The notes: generated by a model not told the origin, from the letters alone. A stretch of DNA of 64,000 nt from Longicatena sp. (GCA_036639635.1 JAVWIF010000004.1:8646-72645); one strand, 5' to 3'; shown: positions 60,453-64,000, counted from the first letter of the stretch. Translations and numbers: made by a program.

Positions 60453-60944
60453 ATGATAAAATCGTATCATATGATTTTGAACGATTATGTTCATTATAAA
60501 TCTCCAAAGAATAGAATAAAGAGATTAACAGATGAAGAAAAAATGATTAGGCTTTGCAAAGGCTAATATGAAACCGATAAAAAAACTTCTGGTTACTTAG
60601 TTGCTAATGCTATATATGGACCATCTTATTTATCTTTTGAATTTGCACTTTCTTATCATGGATTAATTCCTGAAGCAGCATATACTTTTACATCAGTAAC
60701 TTTCAAAAGAAAAAAGGAAAAGAAATATACAAATTTTTTGACGCTTCATGAGTAAGTGTGGGTGAATTTCATTAAAGAAAACCATATGATATTTTATTTT
60801 ATGACTAAATCAAAGAAAGCTGTTAAATCATATTTTCTATACATCAAATTATATAATCAAAAGTATTATTTGAATAAGTATCATTTGAAAATGAAGAATA
60901 TTAAGGATGCTTTGAGCGTTGCTGTGTATTCAAAACCTTCTTGA
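60453..60944 (+). pseudogene. Remnant of an AbiEi-family (type IV TA antitoxin / abortive infection) gene
   Basis: Own translation: MIKSYHMILNDYVHYKSPKNRIKRLTDEEKMIRLCKG*YETDKKTSGYLVANAIYGPSYLSFEFALSYHGLIPEAAYTFTSVTFKRKKEKKYTNFLTLHE*. Stop TAA at 60564 falls where the family has G-L-Y-E. The PSY(I/L)S.E.AL.YHGLIPE motif is typical of AbiEi as I remember it. The downstream tail is frame-broken, and no AbiEii toxin gene follows. Confidence 0.55.
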
Positions 60945-61021
60945 TGCTTTTCTTGGATTCATGTATAGCTCCTCTTTTTTTGTCTATACTAAAAACAGAC
61001 AGGAGGATGTATATGAATAGA

Positions 61022-61513
61022 ATGATGAAAAGACTAGCTTGTTTATTATTTATTGGTGCTATGGTAAGTGGTTGTAGTATGAATAAAAAAGAGGAAACTA
61101 CCAAAGAGACAGATAAGGTAAGTGATACAACGCAAAAGGATACTAAAAAGGTCGTTGACGAAAGTAAACAGAAAGTAAATGATAGTGTGGATAATGTTAT
61201 GAAGTATTTTAAAGACCAAGGCGTTGCCTATGATAATATGAAAAATATTGAAAATATTAATTTTGCGGCCTATGAAGGTAGATCATTTATGAGCAATGGT
61301 CAAATGAGTTATATTTATCGCGTAAAGTCAGAAGATGAGAATATGCAGAAAATATTGAAAGAAGCAAAGAATAATGGAAAAGTTAAAGTAAACATTGATA
61401 ATAAGGAACAAGAGTATGGTGCAAAAGTAAATGGTGATTATTTATTATTATATAATTCTAGTGCAAATACTACGGATTTACTTAAAGCATTTCCAAATTA
61501 CAAAATACAATAG
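61022..61513 (+). CDS. Hypothetical lipoprotein
   Basis: Signal peptide with lipobox MVSGC. AGGAGG 6 nt upstream of ATG 61022; the track N-terminal extension from 60941 was rejected. Confidence 0.7.
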   Translation: MMKRLACLLFIGAMVSGCSMNKKEETTKETDKVSDTTQKDTKKVVDESKQKVNDSVDNVMKYFKDQGVAYDNMKNIENINFAAYEGRSFMSNGQMSYIYRVKSEDENMQKILKEAKNNGKVKVNIDNKEQEYGAKVNGDYLLLYNSSANTTDLLKAFPNYKIQ

Positions 61514-61517
61514 ATGG

Positions 61518-61550
61518 AAAAAAAGTCGATGAAATACAGTCGACTTTTTT
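61518..61550 (+). terminator. Terminator
   Basis: AAAAAAGTCGA-loop-TCGACTTTTTT. Confidence 0.8.
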
Positions 61551-61574: not shown

Positions 61575-61603
61575 TTGCATTGTTACATGTATGATGTTAC
61601 AAT
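61575..61603 (+). promoter_or_regulatory. Promoter of the ankyrin/WYL/DUF2779 operon with internal TGTTACA direct repeat
   Basis: TTGCAT (61575..61580), 17-bp spacer, TACAAT (61598..61603). TGTTACA occurs at 61581..61587 and 61595..61601. Confidence 0.55.
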
Positions 61604-61646
61604 AGGGTATATGATAAGGTCATCAAGATAAGAGAGGATGAACTTT

Positions 61647-62003
61647 ATGATAAACGAAAAAGTATTAGCAAAACAATTATTAAATGCCGTATGGGAAGAG
61701 GATGTTGAAATGACAAAGACAGTGCTTGCTGCAGGTGGTGATCCAAATTGGATTTTTAATGGTTATCCAATTTTATTACATGCCGTATTCACTGCAAACA
61801 AAGAAATGGTCATGACACTTATTGATGCTGGAGCATCACAAGTGGAAGAAGCACTAGGATTTGCGTTAGATCGTGGAATTGGAGAAATTGTATTTCCTTT
61901 AGCATTCCTTGGAATTGTTCCAAAGGTTGAAAAAGTGGAAAAAGAATTTGGCTTATATCCATCACGTTATTGTCCTTTGCATTATCGTCCACTTGCCCAC
62001 TAA
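61647..62003 (+). CDS. Small ankyrin-repeat protein (2 repeats)
   Basis: LLNAV.EEDVEMTKTVLAAGGDPN and GYPILLHAVFTANKEMVMTLIDAGA fit the ANK consensus (..LH.A......v..Ll..GAd.n). ATG 61647 with GAGAGGA upstream. Confidence 0.65.
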   Translation: MINEKVLAKQLLNAVWEEDVEMTKTVLAAGGDPNWIFNGYPILLHAVFTANKEMVMTLIDAGASQVEEALGFALDRGIGEIVFPLAFLGIVPKVEKVEKEFGLYPSRYCPLHYRPLAH

Positions 62004-62020
62004 AGAAAGAAGGGCTATAT

Positions 62021-62974
62021 ATGTCACGAAGTACGTTATGTATTCAAATGTTATTGTTGTTGAAGAGTAGAGGGTTTATGACACGTGAAGAACTAGCTAA
62101 TCAATTACATTGTAATAAACGCAATATTGTCGAATATAAAAAAGAGCTAGAAGATGCTGGTTATCGCATTACTAGTACGAGTGGTAAATATGGAGGGTAC
62201 CAATTAGTTAGCGGTGCCCTTTTGCCTGTGGTTGGATTTGATGATATAGAACTTCATGCATTACATGAAGGGACAAATTACTTAAAAAGTCATCATGATT
62301 TTTTAGGCTATGAAGCATATGCTCGAGCAATGGATAAAATACAAGCGAGCGTTGAATTTAGTGTAGATGAAAGTGGCGTATATATTGAAAATGAAATAAA
62401 TGATTTAACAAAGCGGATTCAATTAATGATTGAAAAATGTACCTATGCACGTAAAAGTCATTACGTGATAGAACTTACCTATAAAGCGATGAATGCAAAA
62501 GAATATAGTAAGGTACTTGTACAACCTTATGAAATATTGAATTATAAAGGAGCTTATTATTGCTTAGGATATTCTTTAAAGGCAAAAGACTTTAGAAACT
62601 TTAAATTTAGTGAAGAACGTATGAAAGACGTTGTCGTTACAACAAAACTATTTCAAAGAGAAAAAGATTTTCATGTGTTTGACCATGTGGGAAAAACCGG
62701 ATTGATGAAAGATGATGTATATGAATTAGAGATAGTATTACGTGATGAGAGTGCGTTGTTAATAAGTGAAAAAAGTATAGGGCTAGCTATGCATAAAGAA
62801 TGGCTTGATGATCACAGACTTTATGTACGTACAATTATGGAAGGAAAGATGGATGTTATAAAATTTATATTATCATTAGGAAATCAATGTGAACTTAGAA
62901 AACCTGTCACAATACGCGATGAAATAGTAAAAATTATCGAAGATATGAGAACCTTATATTCCTATTCTAGTTGA
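62021..62974 (+). CDS. HTH-WYL-domain transcriptional regulator (YafY/BrxR/CapW-like architecture)
   Basis: N-terminal wHTH (CIQMLLLLKSRGFMTREELANQLHCNKRNIVEYKKELEDAGY.I). Central WYL-type region (..VQPYEILNYKGAYYCLGYS..FRNFKFSE). C-terminal extension. ATG 62021. Confidence 0.75.
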   Translation: MSRSTLCIQMLLLLKSRGFMTREELANQLHCNKRNIVEYKKELEDAGYRITSTSGKYGGYQLVSGALLPVVGFDDIELHALHEGTNYLKSHHDFLGYEAYARAMDKIQASVEFSVDESGVYIENEINDLTKRIQLMIEKCTYARKSHYVIELTYKAMNAKEYSKVLVQPYEILNYKGAYYCLGYSLKAKDFRNFKFSEERMKDVVVTTKLFQREKDFHVFDHVGKTGLMKDDVYELEIVLRDESALLISEKSIGLAMHKEWLDDHRLYVRTIMEGKMDVIKFILSLGNQCELRKPVTIRDEIVKIIEDMRTLYSYSS

Positions 62975-63018
62975 TGTCTGCTATAATTTAAAATAAAGAA
63001 GAAAGAGAAGTGGATAGG

Positions 63019-64000
63019 ATGTATCATATATCGGATATAAAAAAATACGAACGTTGTCCAAGAAGTTTTTGGTTATCACGTTCTAATAGAAAGAACTTTA
63101 TTCCTTTTGTAAATTATAATGAAAATATGAGCGAACTTTGTAAAGAACTATTAATGATTGCAGAGGATAATGCCTTTGTTGGAAAAGTAAATGATGATGG
63201 AGCACTAGCATTGGGTGCTTATAAAGAAAAAAAGACCTTGATAAATGCACGCTTTGCTTATGAAGATGTACGTATTAAAGTACCTTTTTTACTATGCGAA
63301 GAAGATAAAACAATTCTATATTTTACATATACAAATTGCTATCCTAAAGAAAGTGAAGCACAAGGTATGGCAGATACCATTTCAGTACTTGAGGCATTAG
63401 ATATAAACGTTGATGAAGTTTATGCAATTCATTTAAATCATGAATATATTCGCAAAGATAGTTTAGATGTAAAAGAGCTATTTATTATCAATGACTGTTT
63501 ATATAATAACAAAAATAAGGCACATAAAACAATTCAAGACTTACTGGCTCAAGATAAGCGTGATATAAAGCCACTGTTGGCAGCACTACGTGCTTGTGAA
63601 GAGAGCGAAGATGTAAAAATCAAACGTACTACAGCTTGTACTAGAGGCAATAAATGTCCTTATTATGAAGATTGTTTTCGCGAGAACGTAGAAGATTCTT
63701 CTGTTCTTAGTTTGGTACAATCTGCTCATAAATATGATATGAAAGAAGATGGAATTCAAGATTTAAAGGATGTTGATATTAAACGAATTGAAGGGACACG
63801 TCATCAATATGCACAAATTATGGCCGATAAATTAGGCGGTTGTTATGTTGATAAAGGTGCACTTACTTGTTGGATAAATGAGCATATCAGCTATCCTATT
63901 TCCTATTTAGATTTTGAATGGGAAACGTTTGCTTATCCCCCATATAAAGGTATGCGTCCTTTTGATGTATTGGCATTTCAATATAGTTTGCATATAGAAG
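63019..64000 (+). CDS. DUF2779-domain protein (Cas4/RecB-like PD-(D/E)XK nuclease superfamily), 5' 327 codons only; continues beyond the window
   Basis: Own translation: MYHISDIKKYERCPRSFWLS... with a later Cys cluster (TACTRGNKCPYYEDC) and ..ISYLDFEWETFAYPPYKGMRPFDVLAFQYSLH. The last stretch matches the remembered DUF2779 hallmark (..FLDFE..  ..iP...g.rPy..iPFQ.SlH). Open at the window edge, so absent from the track. Confidence 0.7.
   Translation, partial: MYHISDIKKYERCPRSFWLSRSNRKNFIPFVNYNENMSELCKELLMIAEDNAFVGKVNDDGALALGAYKEKKTLINARFAYEDVRIKVPFLLCEEDKTILYFTYTNCYPKESEAQGMADTISVLEALDINVDEVYAIHLNHEYIRKDSLDVKELFIINDCLYNNKNKAHKTIQDLLAQDKRDIKPLLAALRACEESEDVKIKRTTACTRGNKCPYYEDCFRENVEDSSVLSLVQSAHKYDMKEDGIQDLKDVDIKRIEGTRHQYAQIMADKLGGCYVDKGALTCWINEHISYPISYLDFEWETFAYPPYKGMRPFDVLAFQYSLHIE

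Follow-up and report, generated by a model that had tools for sequence, protein, structure and literature searches.

We analysed a 64,000-nt stretch of DNA from Longicatena sp. (GCA_036639635.1 JAVWIF010000004.1:8646-72645), here called the window, with a focus on the three genes at its downstream edge (61575 to 64000), which encode an ankyrin-fold protein, a WYL-domain transcription regulator and a DUF2779 protein. An earlier reading of the same DNA, the original prediction, had taken them for a WYL-gated nuclease operon and a candidate defence or DNA-damage module. The genes are indeed co-directional and closely spaced, with gaps of 17 and 44 nt, and the locus is defined by the following features, with positions counted in the window.

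61580 to 61602, no strand assigned: operator palindrome TTGTTACAT-N5-ATGTTACAA, of the form TGTnACA-N7-TGTnACA, the presumed site of a WYL dimer
61610 to 61615, plus strand: -10 box TATGAT of promoter P1, conserved, 7 nt past the operator
61575 to 61603, plus strand: TTGCAT-17-TACAAT, the promoter of the original prediction, whose -35-like part is unconserved in orthologues
61647 to 62003, plus strand: gene for an ankyrin-fold protein of 118 amino acids, the first gene of the P1 unit, assigned from its model fold and matches to designed ankyrin repeat proteins (DARPins)
62021 to 62974, plus strand: gene for a winged helix-turn-helix (wHTH)-WYL-WCX transcription regulator of 317 amino acids, with Pfam HTH_11 and WYL domains and a WCX match just under its cut-off
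62979 to 62987, plus strand: promoter P2, an extended -10 element (TGCTATAAT) that precedes the DUF2779 start codon by 40 nt
63019 to 64000, plus strand: DUF2779 gene (Pfam PF11074), cut by the window edge, 489 amino acids in full

For comparison we used 80 DUF2779 loci of the Erysipelotrichaceae from species-representative genomes; these are best pattern matches and no census, many of them are contigs of metagenome-assembled genomes, and their open reading frames (ORFs) were called by a purpose-written script. In 37 of the 80 loci DUF2779 is directly preceded by a WYL orthologue in the same orientation, and 26 of the 80 also have the ankyrin (ANK) gene ahead of WYL; the carriers are Longicatena, Amedibacillus, [Eubacterium] hominis, Massilicoli, Merdibacter, Dielma and Breznakia. 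The ankyrin gene is missing from about 11 of the loci with WYL and DUF2779 (those of Traorella, Floccifex and certain Merdibacter species), and DUF2779 stands alone in about 43, among them a more distant group comprising Holdemania, Solobacterium, Bulleidia and Anaerorhabdus. Co-conservation of the three genes, which had been set beforehand as a check, therefore holds across genera, in about 26 of 80 Erysipelotrichaceae species.

The same comparison speaks against a defence locus and largely matches what the original prediction had named as refuting one, a core, syntenic locus with no defence-island neighbours: DUF2779 stays in conserved housekeeping synteny across about 80 species. In 49 of 81 loci the next gene after DUF2779 is hpf. 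In the group that lacks WYL, genes for an M29 aminopeptidase, a ROK kinase and a RimO/MiaB-type enzyme stand upstream of DUF2779 and the gene for PtsI downstream, and the Breznakia trio is surrounded by pheT, RNase J, def, ftsW, rsmD, coaD and hpf. Judged from these gene orders, the WYL-ankyrin cassette behaves like an addition to a core chromosomal region in one sub-clade.

The ANK-WYL-DUF2779 module tolerates insertions. At one locus, 5 kb of membrane-protein genes separate the ankyrin and WYL genes (L007:1760-6949), and at another a 410-aa ORF on the opposite strand, a presumed transposase, lies between them (L016:5316-6965). Between WYL and DUF2779 we observed a 235-aa putative lipoprotein gene (L019/L022:7098-7998) and a putative helix-turn-helix (HTH)-like gene on the opposite strand (L023:3989-5048 and L026:6958-8001).

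The regulatory site upstream of the ankyrin gene is the best-defined part of the locus. The two TGTTACA copies pointed out in the original prediction are present at 61581-61587 and 61595-61601, 14 nt from start to start. They had been described as a direct repeat, an orientation that does not stand: in orthologues the element is an inverted repeat, TTGTnACAT-N5-ATGTnACAA, that is TGTnACA-N7-TGTnACA, spanning 23 bp, and it is because of one asymmetric base in the window palindrome that this copy looks like a direct repeat. With a score of 14 of 16 as the lower limit there are 28 unique orthologous sites, where random 290-nt windows typically reach 9-11. The palindrome is confined to loci bearing a WYL gene, and WYL-less DUF2779 loci have no such palindrome. 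Within the 64-kb window the pattern has a single match, with 0 mismatches (61580-61602), and no second copy at up to 3 mismatches. Its variants are symmetric: the central base goes from T/A to G/C, and a G3-to-C change is accompanied by C21 to G, as expected of a dimer that reads two identical half-sites. On the strength of this conservation and of the restriction to WYL loci, the TGTTACA elements are the probable operator, and a WYL dimer presumably binds this conserved 23-bp palindrome in its own promoter. The diverged WYL orthologues of Floccifex, Traorella and A. dolichus go with other TGT-rich palindromes. As a side observation, lineages with TNPRNV in the HTH recognition helix carry TGTGACA half-sites, a hint that is confounded by phylogeny.

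Both P1 and P2 were assigned by sequence conservation. In the 28 sites the P1 -10 box is well conserved (T.96, A.93, T.89, n, n, T.96 at positions +31 to +36), and the distance from the end of the palindrome to this TATnnT box is fixed at exactly 7 nt. The hexamer at proper -35 spacing sits inside the palindrome, is ATAAAT-like and lacks the -35 consensus. The originally predicted TTGCAT-17-TACAAT is present in the sequence, and we rejected it as the main promoter: its -35 is unconserved, consensus promoter matches occur at chance in this AT-rich DNA (22 found vs 22.5 expected from shuffles), and the comparative data favour the better conserved TATGAT box at 61610-61615. A reading of the palindrome as an RNA hairpin was ruled out because the palindrome lies upstream of the conserved -10 box. 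The leader from 61616 to 61646 and its orthologous counterparts also hold a moderately conserved motif, A(T/G)AG(A/n)C(A/G)T(C/A)AA, between the -10 box and the ankyrin ribosome-binding site; in about 70% of sites the bases at +40 and +42, counted from the palindrome start, are G and C.

Three Merdibacter genomes have a second palindrome (L032:14227-14249, L037:15087-15109 and L028:14233-14255), followed after 7 nt by a TATAAT -10 box and located between hpf and spoIIGA-sigE-sigG. The ORF directly after it is conserved, encodes 65-72 amino acids beginning MKYSIRLKEGWIGYYN... and has no Pfam or NCBIfam match. These second sites support the operator-promoter geometry and point to a regulon beyond one operon, of which the 65-72 aa ORF is a possible second member.

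The product of the second gene is a 317-aa HTH-WYL regulator, as originally described. Its N-terminal winged HTH matches Pfam HTH_11 (E = 3.7e-9, residues 10-61) and its central domain PF13280 (E = 1.3e-9, 38.4 bits vs a cut-off of 21.8; PADLOC WYL, E = 6e-26). The WCX domain scores 22.3 bits against PF25583, just below the cut-off of 23.9, and many orthologues have a precomputed PF25583 match. The WYL motif of the window protein, KGAYYCLGY, is of the canonical type and not the RWHVR that replaces it in the CapW/BrxR repressors (PMC11662680). When searched against the Protein Data Bank (PDB), the family profile matched PafBC (1.4e-8), CapW (7.8e-6), BrxR (1.2e-4) and DriD (1.9e-3), as well as PafC, and so reached the activator group (PafBC/DriD) and the repressor group (CapW/BrxR) alike. 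The WYL family comprises 87 detectable clusters, all in one orthologous group, and its named sources are all Erysipelotrichaceae or related.

For the first gene, the size and the ankyrin fold of the predicted "118-aa two-repeat ankyrin protein" stand and the repeat number does not, the protein having three helix pairs plus a tail. It scores 16 bits against Pfam Ank_2, below the cut-off of 27.3, and a few orthologues carry PF12796. Its AlphaFold model, built with 29 homologues, has a predicted local distance difference test (pLDDT) score of 92 and six helices in three pairs, and superposes on DARPins over about 90 columns with a root-mean-square deviation of 1.9-2.1 Å and 28-33% identity, from which we conclude that the ankyrin assignment is correct. 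The conserved C-terminal tail reads FGPYPSRYxPL. The ankyrin family has 124 clusters, and all members with a source name come from Erysipelotrichaceae or a related genus. A PADLOC match of the protein to PDC-M72A was discarded as evidence since it covers generic repeats only.

Among four compared genes the ankyrin gene is the most conserved, with a mean distance of 0.41 vs 0.55 for WYL. In partial Mantel tests over 22 loci, a procedure that is liberal among related sequences and inclined to false positives, ankyrin divergence followed that of WYL given DUF2779 (r = 0.44, p = 2e-4) and did not follow that of DUF2779 given WYL (r = -0.10, p = 0.79), which hints that regulator and ankyrin protein work together. 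WYL and DUF2779 were likewise correlated given the lipoprotein encoded upstream of the ankyrin gene (r = 0.44, p = 2e-4), which hints at a functional tie between regulator and exonuclease.

The third gene was followed beyond the window in an identical 5,969-bp contig with the same genes (L001) and in the full-length protein P0001, which is annotated PF11074. The truncated gene itself matches PF11074 at E = 1.3e-8 over its last 32 residues (296-327). Residues were mapped by alignment with distant plasmid members and 150 representatives of the 6105-cluster family, and hhalign against distant members confirmed the column mapping (probability 100%, E = 1e-65). The YERCPRSFW motif and the DUF2779 identity given in the original prediction stand; its C-x6-C-x5-C cluster is in fact C-x5-C-x5-C (C207, C213 and C219). 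These three residues and C13, the Fe-S cysteines, are invariant, as are the DEDDy residues D298, E300, N367, E372, Y468 and D472.

DUF2779 proteins combine a Cas4-like PD-(D/E)XK domain with a DEDD-type RNase H-like exonuclease (PMC3985635, PMC13621843). The PD-(D/E)XK site of the present protein has P89, F102, Y104 and T120 at the D, E, K and Q positions. The loss is clade-wide, about 54 Erysipelotrichaceae-type clusters (50% identity) having P, F/Y or variable residues at D/E/K/Q, and almost all more distant members retain D-E-K-Q. Activity as a Cas4/RecB-like nuclease, as originally suggested, therefore finds no support, the site being ablated throughout this clade; going by its residues, the protein is best described as a probably active 3'-5' exonuclease carrying an Fe-S, Cas4-derived and catalytically dead domain. 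A full-length model (pLDDT 91) has Cas4 (4r5q) as its best Foldseek match, a weak one at E = 5e-3, followed by RNase H-like, exonuclease and RecB chains at E > 0.03. The DUF2779 profile matched nothing among PDB sequences even at E = 10, neither PADLOC nor NCBIfam has a model matching DUF2779, and no DUF2779 was found among 50,697 phage records.

DUF2779 also has a promoter to itself. P2 begins 5 nt past the WYL stop codon, and 30 of 38 WYL loci, or 46 of 81 loci overall, carry a TGnTAnAAT element 22-40 nt before DUF2779, against a background of 2.4%; many of the loci with this element lack a WYL gene. There is no operator at P2, and the stretch from WYL to DUF2779 contains no predicted terminator-like structure (z = -0.98). 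The simplest map, drawn from these sequence features, would have two transcription units: P1 would drive ANK-WYL with read-through into DUF2779 and a following CorA gene, P2 would drive DUF2779 and CorA, and both would stop at a terminator after CorA.

What follows DUF2779 bears on the original suggestion that an effector set continues past 64000, which did not hold up: DUF2779 ends at 489 amino acids, and a CorA-family gene (L001:4564-5487, 20 nt past DUF2779; full-length Pfam CorA match, E = 7e-48), a terminator (z = -3.0) and a YgiQ-type radical S-adenosylmethionine gene come next. Tight adjacency of DUF2779 and CorA is seen in L001 and L002 only; in L003-L005 a CorA homologue is found about 0.8-1.2 kb farther along, and neither CorA nor YgiQ is conserved at this position in other genera. 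We considered CorA as a system component, since PADLOC has CorA-like models, and rejected it on its full-length Pfam CorA match and an adjacency limited to the Longicatena group.

Upstream of P1, the surroundings of the locus include three further features.

60471 to 60755, plus strand: decayed AbiEi antitoxin gene, N-terminal half with one in-frame stop, truncated
61013 to 61513, plus strand: lipoprotein gene, 166 amino acids, an ORF with a signal/lipobox-like N-terminus
61519 to 61550, plus strand: intrinsic terminator of the lipoprotein gene, AAAAAAGTCGA-N10-TCGACTTTTTT, an 11-nt perfect inverted repeat

The predicted terminator before the ankyrin gene is real by its folding energy (-13.4 kcal/mol, z = -4.0), and the lipoprotein gene is a transcription unit separate from ANK-WYL. 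The lipoprotein has weak family matches only, and its gene is the syntenic upstream neighbour in 23 of 80 loci. The decayed AbiEi gene 0.7 kb upstream was also correctly recognised, with a PADLOC AbiEi match confined to the N-terminal half of that profile (E = 1.7e-32), an NCBIfam TAA_AbiEi match at E = 1.6e-4 and no Pfam match. A test for an AbiE system found AbiEi incomplete, reduced to its N-terminal half with a stop, and saw no AbiEii toxin. In L011 and L024 the lipoprotein gene comes straight after ppdK, where the window has the remnant between the two, so the remnant looks like an old insertion; it is a lineage-specific leftover outside the ANK-WYL-DUF2779 module. The 25 kb of window upstream, with genes for ABC transporters, a pyridoxal-phosphate enzyme, an alanine-dehydrogenase-like protein and a nucleoid-associated protein and with pgi and ppdK, is no defence island.

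Among known systems, the closest parallels to the regulator are DriD of Caulobacter and PafBC of mycobacteria, wHTH-WYL-WCX activators that respond to single-stranded DNA (ssDNA) and control SOS-independent DNA-damage regulons. The promoters bound by DriD have no -35 consensus; its 7-N7-7 pseudo-palindrome there overlaps the -35 position, with a constant spacing to the -10 box (PMC13004042). The regulator described here shares with DriD and PafBC the predicted three-domain architecture and a canonical-type WYL motif rather than RWHVR; its operator matches the DriD site (ATACGAC-N7-GTCGTAT) in its 7-N7-7 layout over the -35 position, fixed -10 distance and absent -35 consensus; and its best PDB sequence matches are PafBC chains. 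It differs in that the similarity is remote (profile E = 1e-8), in that it is presumably a homodimer whereas PafBC is heterodimeric, in having 1-2 operator sites per locus, and in the co-encoded ankyrin protein, a partner described for no WYL system in the searched literature.

BrxR and CapW, repressors of BREX, CBASS and other defence operons, resemble it in architecture, in the position of the regulator gene directly upstream of the genes it would control and in a palindromic operator of about 20 bp in its own promoter, and CapW senses ssDNA, the ligand proposed here. Unlike them, the present protein lacks the RWHVR motif, the downstream gene has its own promoter and the chromosomal surroundings are of a conserved housekeeping kind; beside the WYL regulator there is no recognised defence system, PADLOC giving no significant match for DUF2779 and the neighbours being housekeeping genes. 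SiwR of M. smegmatis is reported to be a WYL regulator of neighbouring chromosomal stress genes that acts under genotoxic stress (PMC10693628), although its target genes differ. Our literature search returned no paper on WYL with ankyrin, nor on WYL in Erysipelotrichaceae.

DUF2779 itself can be compared with MMSYN1_0389, a homologue that is quasi-essential in JCVI-syn3.0 (PMC13621843). The two-domain layout of this protein and the PF11074 family recurs here, with D298, E300, E372, Y468 and D472 of the DEDDy site conserved and Cas4 as the top fold match. The Erysipelotrichaceae proteins have D/E/K/Q replaced and four cysteines kept, whereas MMSYN1_0389 is reported to have D/E/K with two cysteines lost; most other DUF2779 members keep both catalytic residues and cysteines and lie in variable, defence-like contexts.

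The reading we favour, tentatively and at a probability of about 0.45, is that a lineage-specific cassette of ANK and wHTH-WYL-WCX genes has docked upstream of a vertically inherited housekeeping DUF2779 exonuclease, is autoregulated and has a stress role. A WYL homodimer would bind the palindrome and autoregulate P1. A nucleic-acid ligand would switch the regulator, most likely ssDNA by analogy with DriD, PafBC and CapW, for which ssDNA is the ligand (PMC11662680, PMC11804915). Switching would raise the levels of the ankyrin protein and the WYL regulator, and read-through from P1 would lift the exonuclease above a constitutive baseline set by P2, with the ankyrin protein acting on or with the WYL regulator and not on the exonuclease. 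The 7-N7-7 operator over the -35 position, the fixed -10 distance and the absent -35 consensus, as in DriD promoters, favour activation, so by analogy the P1 geometry leans towards a DriD/PafBC-like activator over repression by occlusion of the CapW/BrxR kind. The most likely role is then an ssDNA or DNA-damage type stress response and not a mobile anti-phage system; of the two options left by the original "defence or DNA-damage module", DNA damage is the better one and defence is unlikely.

Several points weigh against this reading. P2 is conserved and free of an operator, so WYL control of the exonuclease would have to come entirely through the inferred read-through. Six loci (L019, L022, L023, L026, L029 and L031) have a gene between WYL and DUF2779, in two of them on the opposite strand, and none of the six has an operator before DUF2779. 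Together with P2, these loci indicate that the exonuclease is not simply WYL-gated: of the original "WYL-gated nuclease", the persistent WYL-DUF2779 linkage survives and simple gating does not, given the gene's own TGnTAnAAT promoter. The DNA-damage link of the cassette is suggested by analogy with other WYL regulators, and WYL ligands other than ssDNA exist, a regulator of L. plantarum being reported to sense cyclic di-GMP (PMC11880434). Canonical DUF2779 in other phyla, moreover, sits in a defence-island-like context. Outside Erysipelotrichaceae (plasmids L082, L083, L084 and L090; metagenomes L093-L172) its neighbourhoods are hypervariable and rich in genes for PDDEXK_4, SRA/PvuRts1I, HD, OLD-TOPRIM/AAA, ResIII, Abi_2, restriction-modification, NERD and toxin-antitoxin functions. 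WYL-WCX proteins make up 2 of 100 neighbours of canonical DUF2779. Two metagenomic loci with canonical DUF2779 genes, L154 (44-682) and L171 (1920-3308), encode a WYL-WCX protein beside them, in one case directly upstream with an 11-nt gap, which suggests that the WYL-DUF2779 pairing arose more than once.

These observations feed the alternatives. Were ANK-WYL an independent unit whose real targets lie elsewhere, with DUF2779 a mere syntenic neighbour transcribed constitutively from P2, an operator-free P2 would be natural, as would the genes lodged between the two, which in some loci have the reverse orientation and after which DUF2779 is preceded by no operator; and the second Merdibacter operator and -10 box before an unrelated 65-72 aa ORF by spoIIGA-sigE point to a regulon that exceeds the cassette. 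We consider this doubtful, although worth keeping in view, because 37 loci keep WYL right before DUF2779 in the same orientation, even at about 31% WYL identity; all 87 WYL members form one orthologous group, and the one distant member followed on a long contig, from Breznakia, keeps the context; WYL and DUF2779 divergence remain correlated given the lipoprotein (r 0.44); and no terminator separates the two genes. A BrxR/CapW-type anti-phage system under WYL repression, its effector being DUF2779 and its sensor or adaptor the ankyrin protein, would fit the common position of wHTH-WYL-WCX repressors upstream of defence operons, where they bind palindromes of about 20 bp (PMC9122601, PMC11662680), the defence-type genes around canonical DUF2779 in other phyla, occasionally beside WYL genes, and the decayed AbiEi gene close by. 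It is nevertheless improbable: the locus is fixed in family-wide housekeeping synteny rather than island-like and no phage copies were found, there is no PADLOC model for DUF2779 and the PDC-M72A match of the ankyrin protein is one of generic repeats only, the Cas4-like site is dead, the motif is AYYCL and not RWHVR, the DUF2779 promoter looks constitutive, and one homologue of DUF2779 is quasi-essential in a minimal cell kept in phage-free culture.

A toxin-antidote logic, in which the ankyrin protein would inhibit the DEDDy exonuclease or serve as its immunity partner and the WYL regulator would set the ratio of the two, is very improbable. Ankyrin-repeat proteins do act as binders, and this one is the most conserved of the four genes (0.41 vs 0.55 for WYL) and is encoded upstream of the exonuclease in a common unit; its divergence, however, does not follow that of DUF2779 given WYL (r = -0.10, p = 0.79), about 11 loci have WYL and DUF2779 without it and about 43 DUF2779 alone, and from its own promoter the exonuclease would be made without the putative antidote.

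The locus provides a clearly defined putative operator-promoter pair for a Firmicute WYL regulator and, within the searched literature, the first ankyrin partner of such a regulator. In that literature the ankyrin partner, the defined operator, the dual-promoter layout and the clade-wide Cas4-like inactivation all appear to be undescribed. The Erysipelotrichaceae proteins may also serve as a natural separation-of-function form of DUF2779, with a predicted dead Cas4-like site, Fe-S cysteines kept and a putatively live exonuclease, in a large uncharacterised family of 6105 clusters at 50% identity, and the locus cautions that WYL-plus-nuclease neighbourhoods are not always phage defence. The linkage to WYL hints that DUF2779 processes DNA ends or ssDNA, since the well-studied WYL regulators cited above sense ssDNA. 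A bolder and, in our view, unlikely extension is that some Erysipelotrichaceae possess an SOS-independent damage response of the DriD/PafBC kind, in which an ssDNA-sensing WYL activator with an ankyrin co-factor boosts a domesticated DUF2779 protein made of a dead, Cas4-derived, Fe-S DNA-end-binding domain and an active DEDDy exonuclease. If true, the DUF2779 gene that is quasi-essential in JCVI-syn3.0 would have the processing of DNA ends or ssDNA as its function.

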